DNA of 37,086 nt from a virus (lineage: Duplodnaviria; Caudoviricetes), in IMG/VR virus record IMGVR_UViG_3300032250_000072, positions 1-37,086 of that record, one strand, 5' to 3'. The first letter of the stretch is position 1, and each line of letters begins with the position of its first letter. This document shows, piece after piece, positions 5,403-29,546 of the stretch. The translations under genes were made by a program, and so were the position numbers. Under the pieces are notes generated by a model. It had not been told where the DNA came from and made no database searches. It was given only the letters and a program-made list of their open reading frames with translations.

Positions 5403-5411
5403 GCTGTGGCT

Positions 5412-5482: not shown

Positions 5483-5496
5483 GGTACTAGTTTGCG

Positions 5497-6444
5497 ATGA
5501 ACATCTTTTATTTAGACCACAACCCGCGCACCGCTGCCGAAATGATGCACGACAAGCATGTGGTCAAAATGATTCTCGAAACGGCACAAATCCTCAGTTC
5601 AGTGTGTCATCGACACGACACTTGGATTGAGGAAATGTATCGCCCCACGCACAAAAACCATCCCAGCGTGCTGTGGGCAGGCGACAGTGCTGACAATTTT
5701 TGGTGGCTGTACGCGCACGGACTATGGCTGTGCAAAGAATTTGAGTATCGATACAACCACCATCACAAGAGCTCAGACGTTATCGAATTGATGCCGTACT
5801 TTGCTCCCAAACAGTTCCCACTCCCGTACTGGACACCGCCTCCGCAGGCTATGCCAGATGAATTCAAAATTGCCGGTGACAGCGTTGCTGCTTACCGAGC
5901 ATACTACCTGGGGCGGAAGGTAGAGCAAAGTGGTTGGACACGCCGCCCCGTGCCAACGTTCGTTTTAGAAGGAAAAGCCAACATGGCTAAGAAGAAGCAA
6001 GTGGAGTCCGCTGAGACTTCTACCTCCGCAGCGGCAGACGCACCGGCTGCACCCAAGAACGCACCGGGTGCCCCCATCGGCGCACGTGGCCCGAAGGGCG
6101 TGGCACTGGACGCCATTGTTAGCCTCAAGGTTGAGGGCAACCCCAAGCGTCCGGGCAGCAAGGCGCACGACGTATTTGCACAGTACGTGGACGGGATGAC
6201 GGTACAGCAGTTCCTTGACGCCGTGGGCCAAGCCGCTACTCCCAACCTCGTGTACGATGCAGCGCACGGCTTTATCGCCATTGAGGGGTACGACCCCAAG
6301 CTGGTGTTGAAGAAGGAGCGTGCCCCCAAGGCAGAAAAGGCTCCTAAGGAGCCCAAGGCCCCCCGTGGCAAGAAGGCCAAAGCCGCCGCTGAGGCAGCCC
6401 CTGCCTCCGTTGACGACGTAGCGGTTGAAGAGACCATCGACTGA
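5497..6444 (+). CDS. Pyrimidine dimer DNA glycosylase/endonuclease V-like protein fused in frame to a basic DNA-binding-like domain
   Basis: MNIFYLD, DKHVVKMILETAQILS, THKNHPS..W, PQAMPDE, AYRAYY motifs. The C-terminal half has an NPKRPGSKAH..F..Y.DGMTV domain and Lys/Ala/Pro repeats. Confidence 0.8.
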   Translation: MNIFYLDHNPRTAAEMMHDKHVVKMILETAQILSSVCHRHDTWIEEMYRPTHKNHPSVLWAGDSADNFWWLYAHGLWLCKEFEYRYNHHHKSSDVIELMPYFAPKQFPLPYWTPPPQAMPDEFKIAGDSVAAYRAYYLGRKVEQSGWTRRPVPTFVLEGKANMAKKKQVESAETSTSAAADAPAAPKNAPGAPIGARGPKGVALDAIVSLKVEGNPKRPGSKAHDVFAQYVDGMTVQQFLDAVGQAATPNLVYDAAHGFIAIEGYDPKLVLKKERAPKAEKAPKEPKAPRGKKAKAAAEAAPASVDDVAVEETID

Positions 6445-7232
6445 TGGCCATGGACGTCCTTATTCCAACATACGGGCGTCCACAACAAGACAGGCAGCAT
6501 ACCCTCCGTGCTCTTAGAGCCGAGGGCGTGCTGCCTGTTCTAGTTGTGCAGCACCGTGAGCACACTCAGTACGCGTGGTACGACGGGCCCGTGCACGTGT
6601 TGCCGCCGCACATCAAAACCGTAGCCCCTACACGGGACTACTTGATGCACAACGATATCTGGAAGGAGCGCTTTGTCGTCATGCTTGATGATGACCTGCA
6701 CTTCTTTGCCCGCCGCGTGGACGAGCCCACCAAGTTCCGCGCCCTGGTGCCTTCTGAACTGCGCCGCATGCTAGACCAAATTGAGGGTAGGTTAGACCTC
6801 TACCCCCACGTGGGCATCGCTCCACGGGAGGGTGGCAACCGTAACACGGAACAAGTGATGCTCAACACGCGCATCATGCGCGTGCTGGGATATGACAGGC
6901 ACTACCTCCGCGCCCACAACATTACGTTTACGCCCATGCCCGTAATGGAAGACTTCCACGTTAGTTTGCAGATTCTTAAATCTGGCAAGGATACGCTGGT
7001 GCTCAACAACTGGTGCAACAACCAAGCCGAGGGTAGCGACGCCCCCGGTGGCTGCTCCAGCTACCGCACCATGGCGCTCCAGGCCGAGGCAGCGCATCTG
7101 CTTGCTGCGCTGCACAAGCCCTACGTCAGTGTAGTGGAGAAAGAAACCAAGACCGCTTGGGGTGGTGGCACACGTACCGACGTAGTGGTGTACTGGAAGA
7201 AAGCGAGACAGCATGCTGCATCTAACGCATGA
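6444..7232 (+). CDS. GT-A fold glycosyltransferase, TAGT / base-J glucosyltransferase (GREB1)-like
   Basis: IPTYGR, TRDYL, VMLDDD (DxD), MEDFHVSLQIL..G and APGGCSSYRT motifs. Translationally coupled (TGATG) within the modification operon. Confidence 0.8.
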   Translation: MAMDVLIPTYGRPQQDRQHTLRALRAEGVLPVLVVQHREHTQYAWYDGPVHVLPPHIKTVAPTRDYLMHNDIWKERFVVMLDDDLHFFARRVDEPTKFRALVPSELRRMLDQIEGRLDLYPHVGIAPREGGNRNTEQVMLNTRIMRVLGYDRHYLRAHNITFTPMPVMEDFHVSLQILKSGKDTLVLNNWCNNQAEGSDAPGGCSSYRTMALQAEAAHLLAALHKPYVSVVEKETKTAWGGGTRTDVVVYWKKARQHAASNA

Positions 7233-8043
7233 GCTTGCCTACTGGATAAATGAGCGCCACCGCATCAAGCTCGCCAAGGAGGCAAAGGACACTCCACCCT
7301 GGAGCACGGACCCTGTGTTCAACACTGTGCGGTTCTGCAACGTACACCGGGAAGACGATAAGGTAACCCGTTGGATCCGCAAGTATTGGAACCGTGGTAC
7401 CGACCCCGCTTGGCGGTTTGTGGTGGGCCGCATGATCAACCTGCCTGAGAGCCTTGAGCAGTTGCTGTACTGTGACTTCCCCTGGCAGATGAAAGATGCG
7501 CTGAAGAAGCGCGTTGCCCAGGGACACAAGGTGTTCACCAGTGCGTACACCATCAGTACGTGTGGGCGCAGCATGGACAAGTTGGACTATGTGTTTGATC
7601 ATGTTGTGGGCGGCACCCCTGCAGAACTTAACTACAGTGGGCTGTCCTACGCTGCCGCTAGCTTAGAAGTTGTAGATGGGCTGGGCAGTTTTCTAGCAGG
7701 GCAAGTGGTTGCTGACATGAAGAATACTCACGGCCACCCCCTGCACGACGCACCTGATTGGTGGACATGGTCAGCGCCTGGGCCGGGTAGCCTGCGGGGG
7801 TTGAGCTGGTACTTCAACAAGGAGGCAATGCTGAATGAGATTCAGTCAATAACTCCTAGAGAATACAGGCACGCTCTGCGTGCTTGCAGGCATGAGGTTG
7901 ACCCACTTGTGCGGCCAGAGGTGCCACGCATTAGTGACCAAGACTTCCAAAACTGCTTGTGCGAGTTCAGCAAGTGGTGCAAGGTCAAGTACATGAACGG
8001 ACATGTGAGGAACAGATATGACCCCCTTCTTTCAGCGCGTTGA
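7213..8043 (+). CDS. aGPT-PPlase clade 1-like alpha-helical (HhH glycosylase-fold) DNA base hypermodification protein
   Basis: WINERHRI...PPWSTDPVF..RFCNVHREDD, helix-hairpin-helix GLGSFLAGQVVAD, PGPGSLRGL, QNCLCEFSK. Confidence 0.85.
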   Translation: MLHLTHELAYWINERHRIKLAKEAKDTPPWSTDPVFNTVRFCNVHREDDKVTRWIRKYWNRGTDPAWRFVVGRMINLPESLEQLLYCDFPWQMKDALKKRVAQGHKVFTSAYTISTCGRSMDKLDYVFDHVVGGTPAELNYSGLSYAAASLEVVDGLGSFLAGQVVADMKNTHGHPLHDAPDWWTWSAPGPGSLRGLSWYFNKEAMLNEIQSITPREYRHALRACRHEVDPLVRPEVPRISDQDFQNCLCEFSKWCKVKYMNGHVRNRYDPLLSAR

Positions 8044-8404
8044 TGACTTTAACCGCATGTACGGGTTGCCTGCGCCCGCTACACCGACGATGATTAGCCC
8101 CGTGCGCCTGCGGCAGTTCAAAGCCATGTTGCTTGAGGAAGTTGCCGAGGGCGACTCCGCTCTAGACGTTGCTGACCTTGCCGACTGGCTGGGGGACATG
8201 ATTGTGTACTGCACCAGTGAGGCCCGCCGCCACGGGCTACCGATTGAGGAAGTGTTGCACATCATAATGGACAGCAACTCATCCAAGCTGGGTGCTGATG
8301 GCACCCCCATAATCAACCAAGAGACAGGAAAGGTAGAGAAAGGACCAAGCTACTGGAAGCCTGAGCCCAAGATTCGTACTCTTTTGATGGAGAAGATGAA
8401 GTGA
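8018..8404 (+). CDS. MazG-like/all-alpha dNTP pyrophosphohydrolase (probable dUTPase/dTTPase)
   Basis: V..FN..YG, EEVAE, DWLGDMIVY, SNSSKLGADG.P, GKVEKGP.YW.PE. Confidence 0.85.
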   Translation: MTPFFQRVDDFNRMYGLPAPATPTMISPVRLRQFKAMLLEEVAEGDSALDVADLADWLGDMIVYCTSEARRHGLPIEEVLHIIMDSNSSKLGADGTPIINQETGKVEKGPSYWKPEPKIRTLLMEKMK

Positions 8405-9375
8405 TTCACAGCATAACTGAGACCAATGTGAACGGTGCGTTTGACACCGCATGGCACTACCTGAGCGTGGCTGGCGTGGAGGAGCCCAGCCGTAACGGAC
8501 CCGTACTGGTTGCCCCCACCCCGGTGATGACCACCTACCTGCGCCCCACGGAGCGGGTGTTATTCAGCCCCCGGCGCGACGCCAACCACGTGTTCCACTT
8601 GATGGAATCTATTTGGATGCTGGCTGGGCTTAGTGACGTAGAGTGGCTAAGCCAATTCAGCAGCAACATCAGCACCTACGCGGAGCCTGACGGCTACATC
8701 CACGGGGCGTATGGAGCACGCTGGCGCAACTGGTTTAATGACGGTGAGTACGACCAACTGCCCGTTATCATCAACACACTGCGCACCAACCCGCAGAGCA
8801 GACAAGCCGTGTTGCAGATGTGGGACCCCACTGCTGATCTTGAAGGTGAGTGGCGCGATAGGCCCTGCAACACCGCCATCTATTTTGACTGCCGTGGCGG
8901 CAAGCTGAACATGACGGTGACCTGCCGCAGCAACGACATTTTGTGGGGCTGCTACGGAGCCAACGCCGTGCACATGAGCGTGTTGCAGGAGGTGATTGCT
9001 CACGCCGTGGGGGTGCCCGTGGGAGTGTACAGGCAGTTCAGCAACAACTGGCACGCCTACACAGACAACGACAAGGTTAAGGACTTTCTAAAGTATCCGC
9101 CCGTAGGGGGCTTTGATTACTATGAGAGTGGCCGCACAGTGGCAATACCCCTCATCTCGGGCAAGGAAACGTGGCAACACTTCCTCGACGACTGTGAGCG
9201 GGTTGTTAACGGCTTCCGCGCCGTGGATACATTCTTCATGGATAAGGTGGCCGTACCCCTGCGGGACGCGTACCTAGCCCGTAAGGCTGGCGAAAGTTAC
9301 GACATCCGCAACGTGCCAGAGTGTGATTGGAAGTTGGGTTTTCAACAGTGGTGTGAAAGGAGAGAAATCAAGTGA
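8401..9375 (+). CDS. Thymidylate synthase-fold enzyme, probable dUMP hydroxymethylase
   Basis: SRNG, ESIWMLAG, GAYG.RWR, DQL, SRQAV..MWDP, catalytic PC, RSND.LWG.YGAN, NWHAY. Context is a base-modification operon. Confidence 0.85.
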   Translation: MIHSITETNVNGAFDTAWHYLSVAGVEEPSRNGPVLVAPTPVMTTYLRPTERVLFSPRRDANHVFHLMESIWMLAGLSDVEWLSQFSSNISTYAEPDGYIHGAYGARWRNWFNDGEYDQLPVIINTLRTNPQSRQAVLQMWDPTADLEGEWRDRPCNTAIYFDCRGGKLNMTVTCRSNDILWGCYGANAVHMSVLQEVIAHAVGVPVGVYRQFSNNWHAYTDNDKVKDFLKYPPVGGFDYYESGRTVAIPLISGKETWQHFLDDCERVVNGFRAVDTFFMDKVAVPLRDAYLARKAGESYDIRNVPECDWKLGFQQWCERREIK

Positions 9376-9839
9376 ACGCAAACGAGAAGCAAGTGGGCGG
9401 AGACCACTACCGCACGCATGGGCAGAAGCTCCAGCACTGGGACTTGGCCGTGATGTACCAGTGGGATCCTTTCCAGTATCAGGTAACCAAGTACCTGATG
9501 CGCTGGAAGTACAAGCACCGCACGCATGACAAGCGGCTTGAGGACTTGAAGAAGGCTGCGCACTTTCTGCAAAAGTACATCGAAGTTGCCACAGAGTATG
9601 ATGCGCCCCAAGCTGTAGAGAGCAAGGAACTGGGCACGGGGTTCTTACCCATCCGCCAGCAGGCTGCTGAGATCCTTAGCAATGAGGACTGGCAGTGCGA
9701 GGGCTACTACGGCGACCTCACCCAGCACTACCGCTGCAAGCACTGCGGCACTATGGTACGGGCTGCGACGCTAGAGGACGCCCACCAAGCCCACGGCGCG
9801 TGCCCTACTGGGCAGGGCTACGTTAACCAAGGCGACTAA
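9372..9839 (+). CDS. DUF3310 (T7 gp1.7-like, possible nucleotide kinase) with C-terminal Cys/His cluster
   Basis: QVGGDHY, KYLMRWKYK, EDLKKAAHFL, then C...CKHCG...H..H..C. Confidence 0.8.
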   Translation: MNANEKQVGGDHYRTHGQKLQHWDLAVMYQWDPFQYQVTKYLMRWKYKHRTHDKRLEDLKKAAHFLQKYIEVATEYDAPQAVESKELGTGFLPIRQQAAEILSNEDWQCEGYYGDLTQHYRCKHCGTMVRAATLEDAHQAHGACPTGQGYVNQGD

Positions 9840-9848
9840 CGTCGTACA

Positions 9849-9894
9849 CATAGGGGTTTACCCTGTGGCGGGTGAGGCATCTCACCCGCACAAT
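9849..9894 (+). promoter_or_regulatory. Palindromic site plus hairpin / candidate promoter upstream of the heptose operon
   Basis: CATAGGG-GTTTA-CCCTGTG imperfect palindrome (9849-9867), perfect 9-bp stem GCGGGTGAG-GCAT-CTCACCCGC (9868-9889), and a CACAAT -10-like hexamer (9889-9894). Confidence 0.45.
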
Positions 9895-9925
9895 ACAGGT
9901 ACCCCAACAACCAACCGGGTGTTAG

Positions 9926-10174
9926 ATGAAGACATATCAGGTGTACTACATGCGGCGGCACATCCCCCCTGAGGGGAGTGTGCACGTTGCAGCAGACCGT
10001 ATGGGCACGGTGCAGGGCACCTCCCGCCGCGATGCCCTGGCAGCCGCCAAGGGGCTATTCCCAAATCTCAAAAATCACGTTGCCGTGGAGATGATAGATG
10101 ATAGAACTCAACCCGTTCCGCAAGCCAAGTCCGTTGCGTATCGCAGCCGCCGCGCTGGAGGAGGCCGAGCGTAA
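9926..10174 (+). CDS. Small hypothetical protein
   Basis: First ATG ORF after the intergenic element, co-directional. 3' end overlaps the next ORF. Confidence 0.5.
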   Translation: MKTYQVYYMRRHIPPEGSVHVAADRMGTVQGTSRRDALAAAKGLFPNLKNHVAVEMIDDRTQPVPQAKSVAYRSRRAGGGRA

Positions 10175-10316
10175 CCGGCTGACAGCCGTTGCAGAGCGAG
10201 AGTACTATGCCGCAATGGAAGAAATGCTCGTTCGCCGCATTGCTCGCCTGCGCCGCGAGGTGGTGCAACTCACACAGGAGGCCGAAAGTGTCAAAAAAGA
10301 TTCTAGTGGTGGGTGA
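10098..10316 (+). CDS. Small coiled-coil hypothetical protein
   Basis: GGAG SD upstream and helical pattern (LEEAERNRL...REYY.A....RIARLR) seen in small phage proteins. Confidence 0.65.
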   Translation: MIELNPFRKPSPLRIAAAALEEAERNRLTAVAEREYYAAMEEMLVRRIARLRREVVQLTQEAESVKKDSSGG

Positions 10317-11199
10317 CAGCATGCTGGACGTGCGCATTGACTGCGAGGTCACGCGCATAAGCCCAGAGGCACCCATCCCCATTTACGACGTAGACCACGA
10401 GCAATGCTACGCCGGAGGCGCTGCCAACGTAGCCTTGAACATCAAGGCTATGGGCGGAGACGTTAAGCTACTCACCGCTGTGGGGGAGGATGTAGCGGGC
10501 ACATCCCTACTCGATATTCTCACTGGTAGCGACCTAGCCTACCAGTCCTGCCCGGTGGAGCGCACCACTACCAAGACGCGCCTGTTTGTCAACAATGTGG
10601 TGCGTGCCCGCATTGACGAGGACCACATACTCAGCGAGCCAGAGGCTGAGCGCATGAACGACGCGCTCAACGACCTGTTTTACGAGTACGGTGTGATCGT
10701 ATTTAGTGACTATGGCAAGGGCGCTCTGCGGTATGTAGACGCAATGCTTGACGCGTGTGCCTACGGGCGCATCACACTGGTAGACCCCAAGGGCTCCAAC
10801 TGGGGTAAGTATGAAAATGCCACCTACGTCAAGGCCAATGCGGCTGAGGTTGAGGCGGTGGGCATGTCGCAGTACAGAATACCAACGGAGTATGGGTTCG
10901 CCAAGTTGATCAAAACAGCGAGTGGCGCTGGGTCAGAAATTATTGGCTGCAACTACCGAGACGATGCGCAGCATGTTCCTCCCCTGCCCGTACAGTGTGT
11001 TGACCCAACTGGTGCCGGTGATAGCTATTTGGCTGCCTTGGCGGTGGGTTTGGCAGAGGGACTACCACTGTACGACGCCTGTTTGCGTGGTAGCGTGGCC
11101 GGTGCCCTTGCAACGCGCCACGTAGGCACGGCTGTGATCACTAGAGAGGAGATTGAAGAATGCTTGCCAAGATTATTGAACAACACAACTCAGCTGTAA
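10288..11199 (+). CDS. hldA: D-glycero-beta-D-manno-heptose-7-phosphate kinase (stand-alone HldE/RfaE domain I, PfkB family)
   Basis: ILVVGDSMLD, RISPEAPIPI, GGAANVA.NI, TTTKTR, SDYGKG, VDPKG, DPTGAGD. GTG start at 10288 with AGGAGG SD. Confidence 0.95.
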   Translation: MSKKILVVGDSMLDVRIDCEVTRISPEAPIPIYDVDHEQCYAGGAANVALNIKAMGGDVKLLTAVGEDVAGTSLLDILTGSDLAYQSCPVERTTTKTRLFVNNVVRARIDEDHILSEPEAERMNDALNDLFYEYGVIVFSDYGKGALRYVDAMLDACAYGRITLVDPKGSNWGKYENATYVKANAAEVEAVGMSQYRIPTEYGFAKLIKTASGAGSEIIGCNYRDDAQHVPPLPVQCVDPTGAGDSYLAALAVGLAEGLPLYDACLRGSVAGALATRHVGTAVITREEIEECLPRLLNNTTQL

Positions 11200-11714
11200 G
11201 TGCTCTACTGGAGCAGGAAAGCACCATCAACGCGATGGCGCAGACACTAGCGGATTGTATTGCTCAGGGTGGTACCATCTACCTGTGTGGCAACGGTGGC
11301 AGCGCGGCGGATTGTCAACACATTGCGGCAGAATTGGTGGGCCGCTTTAAGCGGGAGCGGGGCGGCTACGCCGCCGTGGCGCTGACTACAGACACATCCA
11401 TACTCACCGCTGTGGGCAACGACTACGGATTTGAGTCAGTGTTCTCCCGTCAGGTAGATGCGCTGGCCTGTGATGGGGATGTGCTGCTGTGCTTCAGCAC
11501 CAGTGGCAACAGCGCCAACGTAGTCAAGGCGGCAGAGGTTGCTGGGGCGCTGGGTGTGACTGTGCTGGCATTCACGGGCCGCAACGAGGGGGTGCTGTGG
11601 CGGTTTGCTGACCACACCTTGTGCGTCAACAGTACAGACACCGCACGCATACAGGAGTGTCACATTCTAGTGGGACACATTCTTTGCCAGATGGTTGAGG
11701 AGGCCTTGCAGTGA
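11160..11714 (+). CDS. gmhA: Sedoheptulose-7-phosphate (phosphoheptose) isomerase
   Basis: CGNGGSAADCQHIAAEL, TAVGNDYGF..VFSRQ, STSGNS, TARIQECH...GH. Confidence 0.97.
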   Translation: MLAKIIEQHNSAVSALLEQESTINAMAQTLADCIAQGGTIYLCGNGGSAADCQHIAAELVGRFKRERGGYAAVALTTDTSILTAVGNDYGFESVFSRQVDALACDGDVLLCFSTSGNSANVVKAAEVAGALGVTVLAFTGRNEGVLWRFADHTLCVNSTDTARIQECHILVGHILCQMVEEALQ

Positions 11715-12142
11715 ACGCCCGTATTTGGACCAATGGATGCTTTGACCTGCTGCACGCGGGGCACGTCATGTTCCTTGAACGTGCGGCCAAACTGGGCACG
11801 CTCACCGTGTTCATGAACAGTGACGCAAGCGTCCGCGCCCTGAAGGGCAACCACCGCCCCATAGTGCCCGAAGCCTACCGCCGCCGCGTGCTGGAAGCTC
11901 TCCGCTGCGTGGCGAACGTACACATCTTCAGCGGCCCTAACCCCGTTGAGTACTGGAGTACACTGGGCACTGTACCTGACATCTACGTAAAGGACAGCGA
12001 GTGTGACGTTGCTCACAGCGCCGAGGGGCAGTGGCTGCTCAGCAAGGGCGTGGCGGTGACTGTGTTGCCTCGCGTGCCAGACATTAGTACCACCATACTT
12101 GAGCGTCGCATCCGTGGCGGAGAATCGAGCAGCGTTTCTTGA
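11711..12142 (+). CDS. hldC: Heptose-1-phosphate nucleotidyltransferase (stand-alone HldE/RfaE domain II)
   Basis: TNGCFDLLHAGH (HIGH motif), NSDASVRALKG..RPI, PDIYVK, RVPDISTT. Confidence 0.93.
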   Translation: MNARIWTNGCFDLLHAGHVMFLERAAKLGTLTVFMNSDASVRALKGNHRPIVPEAYRRRVLEALRCVANVHIFSGPNPVEYWSTLGTVPDIYVKDSECDVAHSAEGQWLLSKGVAVTVLPRVPDISTTILERRIRGGESSSVS

Positions 12143-12614
12143 CAGGGACGGAACCCTAATACGGGACGTTCCCTACTTGAATGACCCCACGCAAGTACAG
12201 ATACTGCCGGGGGTGGTGCCTGCTCTACGCAATCTAATTGATTGTGGATACCTGCTAATCGTAGTCACTAATCAAAGCGGCATTGGTCGGTGGCGGATAA
12301 CTAAGGCTCAGTACACTGCGGTGCACCGCCGCATGCTGGATTTACTCGGGCAGCACGGGGTGTACATCACAGGTACGTACTACTGTCCCCACACGCCGGA
12401 TGCTGGCTGCGCCTGCCGCAAGCCTGGAACCGCCATGTTTGAGCGCGCAGCCCGTGACTTTGACATTGACTTGGCCGAGAGCCTAATGTTTGGAGATAAA
12501 GAAAGTGACATGGTGCCCTGCGTTGGCAAATGTATCCGTGTACCAAAAGACGGCTCCTGGGCCACGTGGTACCGCCCCCGCTACCCTAGCCCTACCCCAC
12601 CCGCAAAAACGTAG
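12114..12614 (+). CDS. gmhB: D-glycero-D-manno-heptose-1,7-bisphosphate phosphatase (HAD IIIA)
   Basis: FLDRDGTL, VTNQSGIGR, CPH....C.CRKP, GDKESD. Start could be GTG 12114 or TTG 12099. Confidence 0.95.
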   Translation: MAENRAAFLDRDGTLIRDVPYLNDPTQVQILPGVVPALRNLIDCGYLLIVVTNQSGIGRWRITKAQYTAVHRRMLDLLGQHGVYITGTYYCPHTPDAGCACRKPGTAMFERAARDFDIDLAESLMFGDKESDMVPCVGKCIRVPKDGSWATWYRPRYPSPTPPAKT

Positions 12615-12668
12615 CCACGGGGCGTCTGATAAGTCGCATGGGCATGTGCTAGCGGTGTGGGTGGCCGC

Positions 12669-12905
12669 ATGAGCCTAGTGACGTCAGTTTGCGTGTATTT
12701 TGCCACTCACCCAGGTAGCGAACTTACCGCACCAGACATTGCACTGCGCTGGAGTGTAGACCCCAACAACGTCCGCAAGACGCTCAAGTACGCTGAGGTT
12801 AAGGGTTGGATTACTTGTGCGAAGAAGCCCAACCCCACCCGCGCCACCAAGCAGATATTGTTCTACACCGCAGGCCCACGCCTGCTAAAGGAGATTGGAA
12901 GATGA
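12669..12905 (+). CDS. Small winged-helix/HTH-like DNA-binding protein
   Basis: ELTAPDIALRWSVDPNNVRKTL....KGWI pattern. Coupled to the next gene. Confidence 0.55.
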   Translation: MSLVTSVCVYFATHPGSELTAPDIALRWSVDPNNVRKTLKYAEVKGWITCAKKPNPTRATKQILFYTAGPRLLKEIGR

Positions 12906-13099
12906 CCTCTCGAATCCCCAAAGGCTGCGACCAGCAGGGCCGTCACACCCAGGCCGCCGAGCCTTGTACAGAACTAGGCTACGAAGAGCCCGACTTCTAT
13001 GGACGCGAGTTCTGGAAAGAAGAAGGCATAGCCCTGATAGTTTTAGCCGTCGCGGTTGTGGCCATCATGGGTACTCTGGCCGCGCTCTACACAACCTAA
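12902..13099 (+). CDS. Small membrane protein
   Basis: ATG 12902 overlaps the upstream stop. GCDQQGR..AAE motif and C-terminal hydrophobic helix. Confidence 0.6.
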   Translation: MTSRIPKGCDQQGRHTQAAEPCTELGYEEPDFYGREFWKEEGIALIVLAVAVVAIMGTLAALYTT

Positions 13100-13104
13100 G
13101 ACCG

Positions 13105-13563
13105 TCAGAGCAAAGCAGCTTCGGCTGCGCGGCGTCGTACCAAACCCGGTAGCACTCGGCCTCCGCCGCGTGTCCACAGCATCAGTTGCGCCTTGGCGTC
13201 TTCCCAGTCACCATCGTCCACGCGCTTGCGCAGCGTGCTGGCCCGGTATCTGGCCACGCCGAGGTTGTAGGCGAAGTCTGTCATCGCGCCGAGTGCTCGC
13301 GGACGCGCCAGGAGGCCCGGAGAGGCCTGCAAAACGCCTGCTAGGTAGTTGTGCCTCAACTCATGCACCAGCCACGCCTCAGCGGTCTCCTTGCTGATCG
13401 GCGCGTGCTCCATCGTCACTTTGCTGCCGTCAGGCTTCCAGACCGTGCCGTAGCCTATGGTGGGATACCCTGCTGGGCAGATGTACGGCTGAAGACTCAG
13501 CCCTTCAAAAGGGCGGCACAGAGCAGCGGCGATGTCTACCGCCTCACTTGCTGGACCGCTCAT
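13105..13563 (-). CDS. Endolysin, GH24 phage lysozyme
   Basis: FEGLSLQPYICPAGYPTIGYG (E-x8-C-x5-T), DFAYNLG, LPGLVRRRAAE. Confidence 0.95.
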   Translation of the reverse strand: MSGPASEAVDIAAALCRPFEGLSLQPYICPAGYPTIGYGTVWKPDGSKVTMEHAPISKETAEAWLVHELRHNYLAGVLQASPGLLARPRALGAMTDFAYNLGVARYRASTLRKRVDDGDWEDAKAQLMLWTRGGGRVLPGLVRRRAAEAALL

Positions 13564-14017
13564 ACACCCGTCCGACAAACCAGAAGGAGATGATCATGTT
13601 GAAGACAGCAAGATCGTCTGCGCCCCACATCGTGACCAAGACCTCTTTCCAGTTGCCGTTCTGGTCTATGGCAATCAAGAAGGAAGCAATCTTCACAGAG
13701 GCGTACAGAGCCAGGAAAGCGTAAGTGACCATCGGGCGCACCAGCGCTGAGATTGCAGAGACAAACCAGCCGGCATTCTTGGCGGTCTCGGATTGCTCCT
13801 TGAACGCCTGAGCCATCGTGTCCATCTCGGCCATCGTCATCTGCGCTTCGACCTGCCGCATGGCGATCTCACCCCGGATCTTGGCAAACTCCATCTCGGC
13901 TTCGACCATGCGAAGCTCATGCGCCCGTTCATTCTTCTTATCAAAGAGCTTAAACACCTCTGGCGCGAGGCGAAGCAAACCGCCAAACAGACCACCAATC
14001 AGCGATTCAAACATCAC
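13544..14017 (-). CDS. Putative holin (3-TM type)
   Basis: Hydrophobic segments, SALVRP..TY and IISFWFVGR motifs, directly upstream of the lysozyme. Confidence 0.7.
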   Translation of the reverse strand: MMFESLIGGLFGGLLRLAPEVFKLFDKKNERAHELRMVEAEMEFAKIRGEIAMRQVEAQMTMAEMDTMAQAFKEQSETAKNAGWFVSAISALVRPMVTYAFLALYASVKIASFLIAIDQNGNWKEVLVTMWGADDLAVFNMIISFWFVGRVYERSSK

Positions 14018-14286
14018 TTGGCTCCTTTGATACGTTCGCGCTCTTCAAGCAGCCTGACCTTAACCTGCAGCTCGTTGATGTGGTTCATCAACTGCTCTTT
14101 GAGAATGGCGCGTTTCTCTGCGGACAGAGGGCTGTCTGTGGGCACGCCAGTGGATGTGATAAGCGCAGGCATGTTGCCTTCGATTTTGGTCAGACGCTCA
14201 GAGAAAGAATTCACTTGCCCCAGCAGCCATGCGATACAGGCCACCACGATGGGGATGATCGCTTTCAGTACGTCTGACCAAGCCAT
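14014..14286 (-). CDS. Small membrane-anchored coiled-coil protein (lysis cassette)
   Basis: MAWSDVLKAIIPIVVACIAWLL N-terminal TM followed by a coiled coil. Confidence 0.6.
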   Translation of the reverse strand: MAWSDVLKAIIPIVVACIAWLLGQVNSFSERLTKIEGNMPALITSTGVPTDSPLSAEKRAILKEQLMNHINELQVKVRLLEERERIKGAK

Positions 14287-14288
14287 GG

Positions 14289-14555
14289 TCACTTCCCAAT
14301 CAGTTTGGTGCCGTATTGCAGCAGCGCGAACAGCGTGACCGCCAGACCCCAGACGCCGATGCCACGATTGACCCACATCTCCAGGCGCCGGTCCAACTTC
14401 TGTGTGTGAGCCTCATTGGCAGCCACGCGCTGCTCAACGCGGCCGATGCGCTCTCCCTGGTTAGAGAGTCTTTCCTCCACCAGCACAAGCCGGGTTACGG
14501 CCTCGGTGAGCTTGTCGACCTTGGACTCAAGGCGCTTGAAGTCATCGTCCGTCAT
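14289..14555 (-). CDS. XhlA-like coiled-coil + C-terminal TM protein
   Basis: Heptad repeat (RLESKVDKL...IGRVEQRV) then a C-terminal TM. Start uncertain (14555-14573). Confidence 0.55.
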   Translation of the reverse strand: MTDDDFKRLESKVDKLTEAVTRLVLVEERLSNQGERIGRVEQRVAANEAHTQKLDRRLEMWVNRGIGVWGLAVTLFALLQYGTKLIGK

Positions 14556-14569
14556 AAAAGAGGGCTCCA

Positions 14570-17500
14570 TCACTGCTCTTCGTCAGCATTGTACGTAACA
14601 GCACCGCCCGCCGCAACCGCCCCACCCATGCTGAATAGTTGAGTGCGCTTGGCCTTCTTGGGGTCAATGGGTACTTCCCACCAGCCGTGGCCCTTGTCGT
14701 CCTTAACCTGCTTGCCACCGAGCGACTTGAGGTAGTTGGCAACCTCTTTCTTGTACCGATCGTAGATGCCTTGGTGCTCGGGGTACTCGAACTTGTCGGA
14801 CACACGGGTCAGCTTGTTGATGGTATCCTCAGTCAAGTTAGCGGTGCCCATGTTGCTCCAAATTGGTTCGCCAATCTGGTTACCCGTAGCGTCAATGGGG
14901 TAGCGCTCGGCTTCCCAAATACCAGTCTCGTCTACGCGGACGTTGCCGGTATAGGTCCAGTCATTGGCGGTGCCTGCTCTACTGCCCACAAGGCGTCTGT
15001 CCGCTAGCTCAGGGGCCATAACCTCTCCGGGGGTTACTTCTATCCTGCGGGGCCACCCCTCCACAGCGGCAACGGTGTCAGCGTCTGCAAAACGGACCAC
15101 TGGGGGTACAGGCTTGTACTGCTCAACCTCAAGGGCCCGCTGCGCAAAGTCCTCAGCTTCTTTTCTGAACGGGGCGGTAGCGGCAGCTATCATTCTATCG
15201 GTGCGGTTGAATCCCTGCTCGACGTAAGAGTTTTCTATCTGCTTGGCATACTTGAGTGCAGACTTTGCTCGGTTGCGCAGGCTCTCGTACTCAGGGTTAA
15301 GCTGCGGCGTGGCGGCACGGCTCAGCTCCTCGCGAATCAGGCGACGTTCCCAGTTCTTGAACATGGGGCGCTGCGCGGTGGCTGCGGCACCTTCCGCCAA
15401 CTTAGCGCTGTGCTCGCTGCTAAGTAGGCTCAGTGTGTTGCTAATGTCCCTAAGTTCTTCATGTAGTGCAATACTGAGAGCTAAGTGTTGCTCATTTGGT
15501 GGGCGGGGTAACCCCCCAGCGCCGAGTGGTGTGTCGGGCATAGAGGCTATATAGCGGAGTAAGTCACCCTCATTTCCAAACTGCACGCCAATGCCAAGAG
15601 CGTTGCTAATTTCAGTAGATAGCCTGCTACTAATTCCATCTTCCAGTAGCATAACAAAATCTGGATTAGCTTGCAGTAGCTGCTCTTGCTTACTAATGAT
15701 ATCTTTTGCAGCAGTGCTCGCCCACGTAATGTCTTCGCCTTGGGCGGTGTAGGGATATAGCTGTCGTATAGGGATTACAACTGCCTCTTGAGCTATCACA
15801 TTATCAAAGGCGCTCTGCAAGCGTGTGCGCTCTTCTTCGGACAGTTCTTTGCCAGCTTTCTGCACAAGATCGGACTGGATCTCCACCACATGGGGGATGC
15901 CTACCTCATCCTCAAACGCCCTGGTATGTCCGAAGTAATTCGGGTCACGGAAGTGATTGTTCGTTGCCGTGGGGGTGGGGCTGCGGTGGATAGTGGTACG
16001 TGCGTTCTGCGCGTTGGGCTCACCCATGCCGAACGTCCACTGAGATGGCGTGAGGTTGCGGTCAATATTTTCAAGTCCGTAGTCGGCAAACCTGTCAACG
16101 TCTTTAGGTGCCAGCCCGTATGGCTCAGTCTCACGGCGGACGCCCGCTACCAAGTCCTCAGCGGAGATGCTGTCCCCCTCCTGCCCAGACAGCACGCGCT
16201 CTAGCACATCCTTCTCAGCCTTGGTGACCTCGGGGCGGCGCATTTGGTCGCGGATTTCGGACATGGGGATCACCGTGCGCTTACCCGGCAGGTTTTCCAG
16301 CGTGCGGAGCGTGTAGGGCTCGTCCTCCAGCACCTCGCGCAGTGAGCGCTCAGGGCCCATGCTGGCAGCCGGGGCGGCAACCCGTTTGGTTCCGTAGCGT
16401 CCACCAGTCAACTCACCAATCGTCTTCAATGCCTCGGGCGGGCGGTCAAGCGCCATCATGCCTTCGCGCATCGGGAATATGTCCCGCCGCTCCTCGGGCG
16501 TGAGGTCCATGCGGGTTTGCGTCAGGCGGGCGCGGGCCTCACCTTGGTTACGCATGTACTGCTCGTAACGACCAGCTTCGGTTGGCTCGGCAATCCTGGC
16601 CTTTTGGTACGCTTCTCTAAGCCGAGCCTGTGCTGCGTCCACACGTTGCTTAAGTGGGTCTAGCGGCACATTTCTAATTATCCTAAGCGTGGCGTCCCGC
16701 AGCATTCCGTCTTGCGCAAATGTGCTTTCATTTTCGGGATTGTATTTCCCGGCAGCTCCAAAATTTTCAGCTATTCCGTAATAATTAGCCCTATCAACTA
16801 CTTCATCAAGAGCTTGCTCGGGGGTCATGCCCGGAGTTTTATCCATTAGCCGACGAGCTTGAAGAGCTGTGGCATCCGCATCAAAGTTTATCTTATCACC
16901 CTCGAGCCGAAGGTTCCAGCTATCGCCCGCTTCTTTAATCGTCTCAGGCGCAATGCCGTAGTCCTTGCCCGCAAAATAGTCAATGCCGTGCTGCGTTTCG
17001 TGCCCCATAATGGCACGTCCGTAGGTCTCACCTGGGCGGAGATATTTGGAACTAAGACGGATAGCTCCCATACCAGGGGCGCTAGGGTCAAAGTGACCTG
17101 CGGTACGCTTGCCGCCCAGGTCAGCCTGCGTGACAAAGTCAACCTGCATCTCCGCCAGCTCGGGGATGCGCTGGAATAGTTCTGGGTGCTCAATTACATC
17201 GGCGTACTTCAAGCCTTTGATGGGCGCAGTCAAGCTATTGTTGGCATTCTCCAGCGCGGCCTCTAGTTGCTCGTTTGTACGTTGCTGCGCCAGCGTCAGC
17301 GCCTTGGGGGATGGGTCCTGCCCCGTCTGTACGCGGATAGTGCGTGCTGCATTGCCCATGCTGCCGCCACGGTCCAAAATATCGCGGACCTGCATGGCAA
17401 CTTCAATATCACTAATGCGCTGCACAATCGGCTCCCGTGCGGCCTTGACAGCCTCGAGAGCCTTAAACTTCATCTTGTCGTCGCTAAGCTCTACAGCCCA

Positions 17501-18229: not shown

Positions 18230-18239
18230 TGCAAGCCCC

Positions 18240-23151: not shown

Positions 23152-23154
23152 ACC

Positions 23155-24102: not shown

Positions 24103-24103
24103 T

Positions 24104-24433
24104 TCAGTTCTCCACAATCAGTTGTGCGTCTACCTTATCAGGGTCAGTTTCATCCGTGTGGTGGATGCAGTACCACACGCTGTCTTTAATTGACGAGATA
24201 GAGTGGCTGAGCCCCGCTGGAATGTTGATCACTGCTGGGGCGTGATACTCGCGCTTTCTTTCACCAAGCTGGACCAACACGTGCCCGCTTGCGAGAATAG
24301 ACATGTGGTCGTGCGTATGGCGATGCTGAATGAGCATGCGCCCAGCGGGAATGGTTATTTCCTTGGCGTACACACCACTAGAAAAGTGGTGTGTTACTTC
24401 GCAGCCAAGTTGCTCAAGGGGGTGCAGCTCCAT
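24104..24433 (-). CDS. Cupin-domain protein
   Basis: HHFSSGVYAKE..IPAG....QHRHTHDH.SIL..G...IPAG..H. Confidence 0.8.
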   Translation of the reverse strand: MELHPLEQLGCEVTHHFSSGVYAKEITIPAGRMLIQHRHTHDHMSILASGHVLVQLGERKREYHAPAVINIPAGLSHSISSIKDSVWYCIHHTDETDPDKVDAQLIVEN

Positions 24434-24471
24434 ACCTGTGCAGTGTACCGCGTGGCGGGCACAGTCCGCAA

Positions 24472-24807: not shown

Positions 24808-24809
24808 GA

Positions 24810-26084
24810 TTAGGTCGCCTGTGTTTGAGCCGTAAGAATGCCGTTGGTAAACGTCATGCTGCCATCGGCACCACCGGCTGTGAGCTTCGCGGTGGTAATA
24901 GTGGCCGAGATGCCAGTGTTTTGAAACGCCATTGTTCCAAGACCTGTTACCGCAATAGTTTGCGTCGTGGTGCCAGTGATGCTGATGTTTGACCCAGCCG
25001 CCAAATTTGTAGCGATTGTCGCCGACCCAACGCCGTTGGTCACTGCAATTCCGGTGCCTGCTGTCAACGCGGCTGTGGTGAAGTCAGTTCCGTTCCCAAT
25101 CAGCATCTGGCCATTGGTCGGATTGCCAGTACCCAAACCCATCGCGTCGCGTGCGGCAGTGGGCGCAGTGTTTTCCCACCGCGCATCCACTCCGTCATAC
25201 ACGAGAAAATCGTTAGCCGCAACGCTGATAATCTCGACGTTGCTGTCTGTGCCGCCAAGGACTGAGCCAGGAACGATGCGAATGCCCATTGACCCAGATC
25301 CTGCGACGGCGGCGTTGATGACTTCGCCAACATAAGTCTTTTGGTTGGGTGCTGACGGCTTGACCTTTGTCATTCTGCCAACAAACGCGGGGTTGTAGTA
25401 CAGCGCATCTCCGTCCGCCCACGTCTCGCCGACGCTGCTGCCTGTGGTGTTGAACCCGCGCAAAACGCCGCTAATCTGTATGAGGCCAAACCCGTTCAAC
25501 GCAATCGTCTCAGCGGCCACGCCTACGATCTGGTTAGGGTCAACCAATCCAAGGGGTGTAGGCGCAGCAGTGATGGTTCCTGACGCACCCACCGCGCCCG
25601 TGTGGTAACACAACTGCCCTTTGGTGATGGCAGAAGACGCCCTGACGTAAACGTATTCAGACTCGCCAACACGCTGCAACACATTGGCCGTCATCTGGAT
25701 GCCCAGCGTCGTGCCACCGGCCCATGCCGCTGTGCCCGTATCGGTAGGAACATGCTCAGGTGTTGTATCGAATGTCGTCCATGGCAAGTTAGCTTGTTGC
25801 AGCGCAGAAAACGTACCTAGCTCTTGCCGGGGGAGTGTCTGTAACTCTTGCAGGGCAGCAGAGACATCACACTCTTGCCGGGGGAGTGTCTGTAACTCTT
25901 GCAGGGCAGCTAACAGCGCAGCAGATAAAGATGTTAGAGCACTGATGGGGCTTGGACCAATGTCTTCCTGACCCTCAGAAGCAGCTACAAGATTCCGCAA
26001 CTGATCAAACCACGCAAGCCATGCGTTAGTTAATCCACCCTGTGGGGTGGCTATGGGAAGCTGTAGCGGTGGTGGGCTAATCAT
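24810..26084 (-). CDS. Tail fibre/spike protein
   Basis: N-terminal PI....G....W..WF anchor. Gly/Thr/Ala-rich with GQMLIGNG, LTAGTGI.VTNG.G, GLGTMA.QN and GSMTFTNGILT fibre motifs. Confidence 0.8.
   Translation of the reverse strand: MISPPPLQLPIATPQGGLTNAWLAWFDQLRNLVAASEGQEDIGPSPISALTSLSAALLAALQELQTLPRQECDVSAALQELQTLPRQELGTFSALQQANLPWTTFDTTPEHVPTDTGTAAWAGGTTLGIQMTANVLQRVGESEYVYVRASSAITKGQLCYHTGAVGASGTITAAPTPLGLVDPNQIVGVAAETIALNGFGLIQISGVLRGFNTTGSSVGETWADGDALYYNPAFVGRMTKVKPSAPNQKTYVGEVINAAVAGSGSMGIRIVPGSVLGGTDSNVEIISVAANDFLVYDGVDARWENTAPTAARDAMGLGTGNPTNGQMLIGNGTDFTTAALTAGTGIAVTNGVGSATIATNLAAGSNISITGTTTQTIAVTGLGTMAFQNTGISATITTAKLTAGGADGSMTFTNGILTAQTQAT
25821..25910. repeat. Exact 39-bp direct repeat, period 51 bp, inside the tail fibre gene
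   Basis: CTCTTGCCGGGGGAGTGTCTGTAACTCTTGCAGGGCAGC at 25821-25859 and 25872-25910, encoding AALQELQTLPRQE twice. Confidence 0.95.
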
Positions 26085-27519: not shown

Positions 27520-27520
27520 G

Positions 27521-28474
27521 TTAGTCTTCCCCAGGTTGGAAGTACATTGTAGACCGCTCTGCGTCGCCCTGCCGCGCAATCAACAGCGCGGTATTCTTCA
27601 GCCCCTCCATCTTAGGAGACCACTGAGCCTTGAACATGGGGGCAATTTGCTCACTCAGGCCCCAGCACAGCGCCAAGTACCACTCCTGCGGATAGTATGG
27701 GTTATCCGCGTTTGCAATCATGTCTTGGATTGGCTCTTGGTACGTGATGACGATATGGCTGCGCGTGTCTCCCGCACTACCGACGTCTGTGTACACTCTA
27801 GAAGTGCCAAGCCCACGCTCAAAGTAAATGGCGGTTGGGTCGCCCGAGTACAGGGGATCTGCTTTGTTGGGCAGATAGTCATAGTCCTGTACCGTCATAA
27901 GATCTAGGGGAGTATCCGTATTATTGATGTCGCGCAGAATGGCAGTCTCAATATCTTTTGGATTTTGAGCCGCCACGCTGTAGAAAAATACCGGGTTGCC
28001 GCTGGCCGCGCTACTGGGGAGTGCAACAGTTAGGTTGACTGTGGTACCTACCACGCTGCTCACGCCAGAGTAATGTAGAGCACCGCTGTCCAGGTACAGA
28101 GCTATCGTACTTGCTGTGGAAATGCCCGTGGCGCTGTCAACAATAATCGCTGTAGCGGCTGCCGCAGCCGACGCAGTGGTTGTGGTGCTGCTAAGATCAT
28201 TAGTCCAGCCCTGTACACTGGGACCGATAGTGTACGTGCCTGTACTGTTGTTGAGCAGCAGATGCCCCCGCTTGCGTGTCCACACTTTGAGGCCTGGGGC
28301 AAAGTCAGTTTTCCCCATCCACTGCTTGCACATCATGTTGAGCATGAGTGTGCAGTCGCTCATTTCATTAGCGGTGGGCTGCTCAGCGGGGTCCAGCTTG
28401 CCGATATTCAGCATAGCTTGCCGCACTATCTCATATTTTGTGACTCCAAAGGAGTAGATGCCGCTAGTCGCCAT
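27521..28474 (-). CDS. Head-tail adaptor (P22 gp4-like) with Ser/Thr/Ala-rich insertion
   Basis: MATSG.Y.F, A...IG, LNMM.KQW, PQEWYLAL.WGL. Lies upstream of the gp10-like gene. Confidence 0.7.
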   Translation of the reverse strand: MATSGIYSFGVTKYEIVRQAMLNIGKLDPAEQPTANEMSDCTLMLNMMCKQWMGKTDFAPGLKVWTRKRGHLLLNNSTGTYTIGPSVQGWTNDLSSTTTTASAAAAATAIIVDSATGISTASTIALYLDSGALHYSGVSSVVGTTVNLTVALPSSAASGNPVFFYSVAAQNPKDIETAILRDINNTDTPLDLMTVQDYDYLPNKADPLYSGDPTAIYFERGLGTSRVYTDVGSAGDTRSHIVITYQEPIQDMIANADNPYYPQEWYLALCWGLSEQIAPMFKAQWSPKMEGLKNTALLIARQGDAERSTMYFQPGED

Positions 28475-28478
28475 GGGG

Positions 28479-29546
28479 TTACGCCGCTTCTCGTTTTGCC
28501 GTTACGCAGTCACGCAGCACATTGTACACGGCACCCCAGGCTTGCCCAATAGTGATGTCCTTTTGGCACTGTGCAGTGCCGCTTTCTTCATCGCGAGTGC
28601 AACCTGTCCAGTTGTAGTGCAGCAGATGGCATGCCGGGGCAGCGTTGGCACCCCGGCCTGCGCACGTAGTATTTTCGCTCCATAGGGGAGTGGTGTTGAC
28701 CCAGTCACGTGTCAGGTTCTCGTGCGTGCTGTGGGACAAGAACACCACCTTTGCCATTGGCTCGCAAGCCATGGCATTCATAACTCCGGTCTCAGGCCCA
28801 ATAACTAGATCAACCTCTTGACAGAAGCTGAGCGTCTCCCGGATAGACCAGACACCAGACTTTTTGAGAATGCGTTGCTCATTCTCCCAGCCAGCCTCCA
28901 GCAACACGCAGTCATGTCCACCAGTCAGCACTATGCGTGCAGTGGGGAACTCTACAAGAATGCTAGCCAGCACGTTGTCTAAGCCAGCCCAGACTTTGTG
29001 TACGCTGCTCCCCGCCAATGACCACACCACCACCGGCCCGTCACCCAACTTGGTACGCTCTCGCTTGGCCCACTTAACTTCATCAGGAGTGGGGTAGAAG
29101 TGAGAGTCCAGAACATACGGAATTTCTGCAATCGCGTGCTGAAACTCTACGTAGTTTCTATTCATCAAGCTGTGGCGAACTTGGGGTGGATACAGTGCCA
29201 CCGTGCGGCCCTGCATACCGAGCAGCGTGCCCTCCACTGATTCGCTGAGGTTGACCCACTTGTCAAACTTCTTTTTATGCCAGTTCCAGAAGTCCATCAG
29301 ATTGCCGTTGGGCACTTGGTCCTTATCAAACAGTACCAAGTTGTCAATATTGGGGTCGTGCAGTACGACGTCAGCTCCCGGCAAACTGGAGAATACCGTG
29401 ACGTGATATCCTTCTTTCTTAAGACCAGCCCACACGCTGCTGGCTTGCATCAGGTCACCAAATGCGCCGTAGCGCACTACACAAGCAGTCTTTGCAGGCT
29501 TGTCGTTCTTGTAGCTGAATCTGTGCGTGTATTTGTTGCTCACCAC
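28479..29546 (-). CDS. GT9-family (GT-B) heptosyltransferase-like glycosyltransferase with C-terminal Cys cluster
   Basis: VVRYGAFGDLMQ, HDPNID, GSSVHKVW, SIRETL.....DLVIGPETGVMNA (D/E-S/T-G..H/N motif of WaaC/WaaF-like enzymes), C-terminal C..CH..H..C..C. Confidence 0.88.
   Translation of the reverse strand: MVSNKYTHRFSYKNDKPAKTACVVRYGAFGDLMQASSVWAGLKKEGYHVTVFSSLPGADVVLHDPNIDNLVLFDKDQVPNGNLMDFWNWHKKKFDKWVNLSESVEGTLLGMQGRTVALYPPQVRHSLMNRNYVEFQHAIAEIPYVLDSHFYPTPDEVKWAKRERTKLGDGPVVVWSLAGSSVHKVWAGLDNVLASILVEFPTARIVLTGGHDCVLLEAGWENEQRILKKSGVWSIRETLSFCQEVDLVIGPETGVMNAMACEPMAKVVFLSHSTHENLTRDWVNTTPLWSENTTCAGRGANAAPACHLLHYNWTGCTRDEESGTAQCQKDITIGQAWGAVYNVLRDCVTAKREAA

Follow-up and report, generated by a model that had tools for sequence, protein, structure and literature searches.

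A GT9-fold enzyme of the capsid operon as likely consumer of a phage-encoded nucleotide-heptose pathway

The window analysed here, i.e., the entire 37,086-bp virus record IMGVR_UViG_3300032250_000072 (G000), is a linear fragment of 66% completeness carrying a four-gene pathway from sedoheptulose-7-phosphate to nucleoside diphosphate (NDP)-heptose and, on its other arm, a GT9-fold heptosyltransferase-like enzyme with a partner methyltransferase. The plus-strand left arm holds polA, exonuclease, VRR-NUC and helicase genes and a DNA-modification block, and the minus-strand right arm encodes scaffold, major capsid protein, adaptor, head closure (Hc3), fibre and ejection-type proteins, a set that suggests a short-tailed phage. 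An assembly chimera can be excluded for this layout, as a 31.7-kb contig from a separate sequencing run is collinear with positions 4000-14995. The DNA was found mostly in freshwater and lake metagenomes (11 studies), with one run as the possible source and no RNA dataset among the listed carriers. The following genes belong to the heptose pathway and to the GT9 locus.

10288..11199, plus strand: HldA-like heptose-7-phosphate kinase, PfkB type (TIGR02198, rfaE_dom_I, E 2.7e-58; motifs DPTGAGD, SDYGKG, RISPEAP)
11160..11714, plus strand: GmhA sedoheptulose-7-phosphate isomerase (NF010546, E 6.1e-59; TIGR00441, E 1e-57; motif alignment)
11711..12142, plus strand: HldC heptose-1-phosphate nucleotidyltransferase (TIGR02199, rfaE_dom_II, E 1e-31; C-terminal VPDISTT)
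12114..12614 (alternative start 12099), plus strand: GmhB heptose-1,7-bisphosphate phosphatase (NF006506, E 5.9e-41; DRDGT, CPH..C.CRKP, GDK)
27521..28474, minus strand: adaptor-like gene, role inferred from its position directly after the GT9 gene family-wide and upstream of Hc3 (phrog_578); Ser/Thr-rich patch near residue 91
28479..29546, minus strand: GT9-fold heptosyltransferase-like enzyme (R25-YGAFG-D31 with the predicted base, GPETG..N257, Cys295/306/316/327; AF2 model and fold matches)
30156..30677, minus strand: S-adenosylmethionine (SAM)-dependent methyltransferase, corresponding to the N-terminal half of the methyltransferase-GT9 fusion typical of the family and here split off (PF08241, E 1.3e-12)
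31597..32124, minus strand: small Ser/Thr-rich protein (22% Ser+Thr), conserved in place directly after the capsid gene, no PHROG match; candidate decoration protein and candidate acceptor
32140..33111, minus strand: major capsid protein, candidate acceptor (phrog_1357, E 1.2e-18; median 86% identity over 42 family loci)

A preliminary description of this DNA had placed all four steps from sedoheptulose-7-phosphate to NDP-heptose at 10288-12614, and this assignment holds. For each protein the best NCBIfam match is a heptose-specific family, yet under the curated cut-off in all four cases; the catalytic motifs are intact throughout, and dN/dS values of 0.07-0.28 versus the relatives L001 and L002 indicate purifying selection. 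GmhA scores 199 bits as phosphoheptose isomerase versus 126.5 for DiaA, and hldA starts with GTG at 10288 behind a ribosome-binding site, AGGAGG, at 10276-10281. As no HldD-type epimerase (PF01370) was detected in any of five records, three of them at least 90% complete and the window itself 66%, the D,D form would be made unless the host epimerises it. In heptose nucleotidyltransferases, the motif (F/L)XXGRSTT (STTR5) is the reported mark of CDP/UDP promiscuity (PMC11573728). The window's HldC has VPDISTT in its place, and none of the STT motifs listed carries Arg before S-T-T/S; from this difference HldC is predicted to be ADP-specific and the pathway product to be ADP-D,D-heptose.

Also the GT9-like gene among the head genes had been recognised beforehand, without its SAM methyltransferase; both sit between the major capsid gene and the adaptor and Hc3 genes. 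The GT9 protein alone gives no Pfam, NCBIfam glycosyltransferase (PF01075 or TIGR heptosyltransferase) or useful PHROG match, and PDB sequence searches returned 3TOV alone (E 0.17 and 0.069). With an AF2 model (pLDDT 88.5), the top Foldseek matches (E 3.8e-14) were 3TOV and the ADP-heptose transferases WaaF, WaaC and TibC, with VIA Z scores of 24.2, 23.3, 19.7 and 19.6, respectively, over 267-292 residues at a root-mean-square deviation of 3.8-5.1. The plant NDH subunit 7wff_a reached Z 19.0 and the next fold 13.4. By its modelled fold, the protein thus belongs with GT9. Many of its homologs carry PF01075, and most of the 120 listed are fused to an N-terminal SAM methyltransferase; far below cut-off, family members weakly match TIGR02201 (12/24, best E 6.8e-5) and TIGR02193 (9/24). 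Gly30-Asp31 is invariant in 35 and in 24 GT9 sequences and aligns with the 'LGD' of 3TOV at E 0.069, while the predicted catalytic Asp31, the donor-loop residues and the four Cys are all invariant or nearly so. In the window, three small basic open reading frames (ORFs; 29540-30159, minus strand) part the methyltransferase from the GT9 gene, a split form confined to the closest kin.

Locus counts are based on the best 80 of 489 viral stretches from a GT9 profile scan (the family comprises 2,755 protein clusters) plus 18 loci from another search, a redundant sample in which close kin are over-represented. At most 3 kb downstream of GT9, the adaptor gene is found in 75/75 loci long enough to tell, and a methyltransferase is found upstream of or fused to GT9 in all 64 informative ones. 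Median identity to the window is 60% for GT9 and methyltransferase, compared to 50% for the adaptor, 46% for Hc3 and 41% for the scaffold. GT9 is a core late gene of this family. Bacterial and archaeal genome assemblies contributed 29 GT9 loci, mostly by the same capsid gene and including cultured Paraburkholderia and Pseudothauera, and an own HldA above cut-off was present in four of five tested genomes with such prophage-like loci. INPHARED yielded no GT9 relative and 12 gmhA-like records, so no cultured lytic family member is represented there. The combination is not limited to this type of virion: in the unrelated G036, which has a tail tube and a capsid-protease fusion and is thus of the long-tail type, a methyltransferase-GT9 gene directly follows the capsid gene, and gmhA and hldE adjoin ORFs that by eye look like terminase and portal.

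Among ten genomes picked by GT9 and at least 90% complete, gmhA was found in two (G001, G011), and hldA plus hldC only in G031. An own heptose supply is hence optional, and the 'self-contained' system of the preliminary description was an overstatement. Where present, the heptose genes occupy either of two places. In the first, all four lie behind the thymidylate-synthase (TS) homolog where the replication arm ends; a TAGT-type DNA glycosyltransferase gene accompanies them in the window, G001-G004 and G008, whereas an unrelated protein takes its place in G011, G032 and G044. In the second, they belong to the late operon, standing before terminase in G021, G031, G033 and G038-G042. In G135, the terminase genes are interspersed with hldC, gmhB, hldA and gmhA; in G134, gmhA precedes scaffold and capsid, and hldE (L398:7878-9218) overlaps the end of the methyltransferase-GT9 gene (6179-7888) by 11 nt. 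G031, G134 and G135, complete with terminal repeats, gave no match for 5-hydroxymethyl-2'-deoxyuridine (5-hmdU) kinase, TAGT or TS in searches positive for the control G001 (1/5 per search), and TS was likewise absent from five partial records of the late-operon type (0/5). Since G032, G134 and G135 came from heptose queries, they serve as examples, not as frequencies. In family records covering the head region, heptose genes occur only together with GT9. GT9 was not seen in the fragmentary heptose-bearing G035, G039-G045 and G084, all of which end short of the neck genes, or in gmhA-bearing large viruses from other groups, and neither set was counted for or against. Further sugar genes lie by GT9 in some members, i.e., a GT4-like gene in G031 and GT8-like and MptE-like genes in G033. 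Besides, a possible modified-heptose route is seen in G136 (L394:4285-8113), where, upstream of terminase, ORFs resembling transketolase and radical-SAM enzymes (by eye) come after hldA and a short gmhA.

The DNA-modification block on the left arm of the window consists of the following genes.

5497..6444, plus strand: Pyr_excise (DenV-like) N-terminal domain, C-terminal part rich in Lys and Ala; opens the block (PF03013, E 8.6e-10; phrog_624)
6444..7232, plus strand: TAGT/base-J-type GT-A DNA glycosyltransferase (PF20691, E 1e-20; phrog_842; R..DDD..EDF motifs)
7213..8043, plus strand: 5-hmdU DNA kinase, helical domain (HMUDK_hel; PF18723, E 1.5e-29)
8018..8404, plus strand: MazG-like nucleotide pyrophosphohydrolase (PF01503; phrog_671)
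8401..9375, plus strand: TS homolog, predicted dUMP hydroxymethylase (PF00303, E 2.3e-24; phrog_5131; PCN with the catalytic Cys; RSND...GAN with Asn)
9372..9839, plus strand: nucleotide-kinase ORF (phrog_236 nucleotide kinase, E 1.3e-11)

The TAGT/base-J-type gene at 6444-7232 had rightly been placed in a base-modification operon: it scores 75 bits with PF20691 (cut-off 27.5), its R..DDD..EDY/F motifs are invariant or near-invariant in the alignment, and kinase and TS genes are its neighbours. Heptose genes had been described as immediately downstream of this operon; downstream they are, but not directly adjoining, as the kinase ORF at 9372..9839, which we take to be DUF3310-like, and two small ORFs intervene between TS and hldA. 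The top PDB match of the TS homolog is a CMP hydroxymethylase, and the Asn of its RSND...GAN motif presumably confers dUMP specificity. N177 is listed near C5 of dUMP in an excerpt of PMC13326640. A predicted source of hydroxymethyl-pyrimidine (TS homolog plus 5-hmdU kinase) is thus present in the same genome as TAGT, with 5-hydroxymethyluracil (5hmU) as the probable base. The amino-acid:DNA transferase (PF18724), partner of the kinase in M6/ViI-type thymidine hypermodification, is absent from G000, G001, G004 and G011 (control G010 positive). The MazG-like gene is dispensable, being missing from L001 and skipped by a contig of run X3. The trio of TAGT, 5-hmdU kinase and TS without amino-acid:DNA transferase is widespread (window 6444-9375, L240-L382), with about 660 kinase stretches estimated; no chemical characterisation of its product was found in titles and abstract openings of the open-access literature, and the trio is a candidate for a base-J equivalent in phages.

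The preliminary description had proposed two sinks for the heptose, TAGT for DNA and GT9 for the virion, and co-occurrence profiling separates them. From 126 TAGT loci, clustered at 95% identity into 74, 55 clusters with at least 6.5 kb downstream were informative. All four heptose genes stand beside TAGT in 4/55, each of them close kin of the window. In 49 more distant loci analysed as whole records (38 TAGT, 3 BGT-like, 8 kinase-only; close kin deliberately excluded), gmhA was never found, nor in the 20 at least 90% complete, with the same query positive on GT9-picked genomes; GT9 itself occurred once (G088). Moreover, GT9 is combined with TAGT, kinase and TS but no heptose genes in G028 (complete) and G088 (93%), and G007, with a TAGT 61% identical, has a gmhB-like gene only. 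A FastTree phylogeny of 64 TAGTs places the heptose-linked ones in two groups mixed with heptose-free TAGTs. That of the window includes L310, L312 and L313 without heptose cluster, and L313, among the closest non-identical TAGTs, belongs to G085, a complete genome that lacks both gmhA and GT9. The cultured phiJL001 has no annotated heptose gene in the 18.8 kb around TAGT and dUMP hydroxymethylase. A lone CTP-transferase-like gene near TAGT in the low-GC L346-L381, without gmhA, hldA or gmhB, was left out of the heptose-pathway count. Hence, the heptose genes follow GT9, as in the TAGT-free G031, G134 and G135, and not TAGT: GT9 likely is the consumer, and the DNA sink is not supported, also as the three heptose-bearing relatives with a replaced TAGT carry a T4-BGT-like protein (an atlas lead) in that slot. 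This family of about 300 amino acids, located before the 5-hmdU kinase (L141:4278-5189, L005:5880-6803, L265, L279, L294), occurs with and without heptose genes. Its likeness to T4-BGT is by atlas lead only (PF09198 clusters 0.95 and 0.94; 160-164 shared features), and we take its motifs to be T4-BGT-like, too; its AF2 model was poor (pLDDT 45.7) and PDB profile searches were empty.

From these genes, folds, motifs, selection pressures and co-occurrence patterns, we infer donor, acceptor and product as follows. GmhA, HldA, GmhB and HldC would convert sedoheptulose-7-phosphate to ADP-heptose, their place at the end of the replication and nucleotide-metabolism arm fitting donor synthesis ahead of late assembly. 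Late in infection, GT9 would then transfer the heptose, with Asp31 as base, to a hydroxyl of a structural protein or of its growing glycan, with the capsid protein, the adaptor and the small protein encoded after the capsid gene as candidate acceptors, and the partner methyltransferase would O-methylate the sugar. Most family members would draw ADP-heptose from their Gram-negative host, a minority including the window's phage bringing its own supply. Separately, 5hmU would replace T, and TAGT likely glycosylates it with a host UDP-hexose, as a module of its own. That ADP-heptose feeds the late methyltransferase-GT9, probably so that a virion component receives a methylated heptose, with TAGT adding UDP-hexose to 5hmU independently, is on balance the account that we favour, albeit with moderate confidence. 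The earlier proposal of a phage making its NDP-heptose for own use, rather than boosting host lipopolysaccharide (LPS) synthesis, is likely in this respect.

Several observations weigh against this account. No gmhA was found in 8/10 near-complete GT9-picked genomes, and GT9 is only 10-15% identical to solved enzymes. From GT9 precedent, a lipid- or LPS-linked host acceptor is as plausible as a protein. When located on the replication arm, the heptose genes always stand beside the 5hmU operon and a DNA glycosyltransferase candidate (TAGT or BGT-like), and five complete core-clade genomes without this operon (G009, G010, G018, G020, G029) also lack heptose genes. The HldA tree splits the heptose genes at this place into two groups with long branches, a pattern that repeated recruitment to DNA might explain. 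From published work, a BGT-like glycosyltransferase, a kinase/HAD protein and a CTP-transferase of contig 53 reconstituted heptosyl-5-hydroxymethylcytosine, and sugar type was independent of glycosyltransferase subclass, according to an excerpt of Pyle et al. (bioRxiv 10.1101/2023.12.21.572611); likewise, NDP-arabinose for use on DNA is phage-made in RB69 and DLP3 (PMC13326640).

Most of these points bear on the best-surviving alternative, in which NDP-heptose of this sub-lineage also serves the DNA glycosyltransferase, giving heptosyl-hydroxymethyluracil in addition to the GT9 product. The adjacency to the DNA glycosyltransferase block in the window, G001-G004, G008, G011, G032 and G044, the two HldA groups at one position, the resemblance of the BGT-like swap partner to the class of Pyle's heptosylating GT53 (an atlas match, i.e., a lead only) and the clustering of T4-type DNA glycosyltransferases with donor genes for the NDP-arabinose route in RB69 and DLP3 would all suit it. 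However, genes of one arm are co-inherited, so this adjacency counts as one or two events. Both TAGT and the BGT-like family are found without heptose genes, which the closest TAGT relatives lack, and G088 has the same early arm without them. Moreover, HldC is predicted to be ADP-specific, whereas tested TET-associated phage glycosyltransferases use UDP-sugars. We therefore regard a second, DNA-directed use of the heptose as rather unlikely. Its strongest form, with one ADP-heptose pool for genome and particle, TAGT writing a heptosyl 'base J' and methyltransferase-GT9 building a methyl-heptose capsid coat, is unlikely as well. A better candidate for heptosyl-hydroxymethyluracil than the window is the complete, 69.6-kb G126 (L276:15388-18184), where 5-hmdU kinase, TS, a GT-B-looking ORF, a HAD/kinase-like fusion (phrog_1238) and a CTP-transferase resemble the contig-53 heptose set on a 5hmU background.

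Remodelling of the host envelope, with GT9, methyltransferase and heptose genes altering LPS core or surface glycan and blocking superinfection, would agree with the LPS-core enzymes being the top fold matches, with prophage-like loci of the family in bacterial genomes and with the role proposed for the LPS genes of P-SSM2 (excerpts of PMC1079782 and PMC7824862). In each informative locus, however, GT9 has a fixed place between capsid and neck genes, and it follows capsid in unrelated virion modules too, a position implying late expression in a cell near lysis rather than lysogenic conversion. Besides, receptor-conversion genes tend to vary, whereas GT9 is a core gene. We regard envelope remodelling as unlikely, and a host LPS booster of the auxiliary metabolic type was rated lower because of gene position. 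Finally, that GT9 uses another nucleotide sugar or is a non-catalytic assembly factor, the heptose genes being a loosely associated auxiliary cassette, is quite improbable: while most family members lack heptose genes, a GT9-fold subunit exists in the plant NDH complex (7wff_a) and other sugar genes adjoin GT9 in G031 and G033, the conservation of Asp31, donor loop and Cys, the direct overlap of hldE with methyltransferase-GT9 in G134 and the restriction of heptose genes to GT9-bearing records among those spanning the head region speak against it.

Other features of the window and its relatives may be mentioned. A promoter and terminator scan stayed at chance level (5 found vs 3.8) and is uninformative on operon boundaries, and a repeat search gave nothing bearing on the heptose/GT9 question; a 51-nt tandem duplication (80% identity) lies at 25797-25898 within the fibre gene 24810-26084. 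Among the ejection genes, ORF 18240-19409 (minus strand, 389 amino acids) is conserved across the family without Pfam or PHROG match; by eye, it looks ATP-grasp-like. A cupin gene (24104-24433, minus strand) precedes the ejection genes. Late operons of relatives have Asp/Asn-hydroxylase-like or TylF/FkbM methyltransferase genes, hinting at further virion tailoring. The virion module is also paired with different DNA chemistries, i.e., a PurZ/adenylosuccinate-synthase-like gene in G009 (L168:10964-12070), an amino-acid:DNA transferase set in G010 (L173:6168-7954) and ThyX plus a dATP/dGTP diphosphohydrolase in G020 (L183:15910-17120). The latter also encodes a protein matching the CBASS inhibitor Acb3 (L182:7303-7944; PF25187, E 1.9e-39).

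A conserved methyltransferase-GT9 in the capsid operon, with supply genes relocating beside it, offers a specific, testable answer for the role of viral NDP-heptose. If virions carry methyl-heptose, virion glycosylation would extend from mycobacteriophages to a large soil and freshwater family including prophage-like loci in Proteobacteria, and some phage 'LPS genes' would be recast as virion-modifying. The prophage-like copies in cultured Paraburkholderia (L472, Paraburkholderia sp. C35; L475, P. rhynchosiae WSM 3937) and Pseudothauera (L486, Pseudothauera rhizosphaerae) bring the family within experimental reach.

Among known systems, TibC/AAH (BAHT; PDB 4RAP) shares with the window's enzyme the GT9 fold (Z 19.6) and four conserved C-lobe Cys, and, according to an excerpt of PMC4358343, it uses ADP-D,D-heptose, the donor that the window pathway would supply, and provides a protein-acceptor precedent. 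However, the N-terminal beta-barrel (TibC residues 1-97) is absent, the model aligning from residue 10 to TibC 88 onward, and the Cys follow a C-x10-C-x9-C-x10-C spacing (295/306/316/327), compared to C339/342/358/370 in the iron finger of TibC. Identity to TibC is 13%, the enzyme is coupled to a SAM methyltransferase in a capsid operon, and no autotransporter substrate lies beside it, its neighbours being the methyltransferase, small basic ORFs, adaptor and Hc3. Because of the missing barrel, the other Cys spacing and the lack of an autotransporter, it is no BAHT, although, judged from the fold, it should work like TibC or WaaF. The best structural matches (Z 24.2, 23.3, 19.7) come from the Veillonella GT9 protein 3TOV and the LPS inner-core heptosyltransferases WaaF/WaaC/WaaQ (GT9, PF01075; 1PSW, 2H1F); the alignment of the GD base motif and of the D-T/S-G loop with these is weak. 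Unlike these heptosyltransferases, the window's GT9 falls outside the PF01075 and TIGR profiles and has a viral late-gene context. Mycobacteriophage glycosyltransferases decorate capsid proteins (Freeman et al. 2023, cited in PMC11256854); they concern another host group, and the citing passage mentions neither GT9 nor heptose, nor does it speak of a fused methyltransferase or of a donor made by the phage.

Production of ADP-heptose by viral NDP-heptose enzymes has been reported (Tang et al. 2024, as related in PMC11573728), and the role of NDP-heptose in viruses has been called unsolved in the authors' commentary (PMC11573728). The hldC-hldA-gmhA set of P-SSM2 is read as host-LPS remodelling in the relevant part of PMC1079782. 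In contrast to both cases, the co-occurrence found here indicates a specific viral consumer. On the side of DNA, characterised TET-associated phage glycosyltransferases use UDP-Glc or UDP-GlcNAc (excerpt of PMC8256090), and phages M6 and ViI have 5hmdU kinase pathways (excerpt of PMC8989533). Common to these two, contig 53, RB69/DLP3 and the window is a hydroxymethyl-pyrimidine handle plus DNA glycosyltransferase, donor genes nearby, or a 5-hmdU kinase; the window differs in its uracil-type TS homolog, GT-A TAGT and lack of an amino-acid:DNA transferase. Its heptose genes are, moreover, the canonical GmhA/HldA/HldC/GmhB set as opposed to the HAD-APH and CTP-transferase of contig 53, and do not track the DNA glycosyltransferase. 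In titles and abstract openings of the open-access literature, no description of a phage capsid-operon GT9 module or of a heptosylated virion was found. Each part has its precedent in viral heptose enzymes, protein heptosylation by GT9 and virion glycosylation, respectively.

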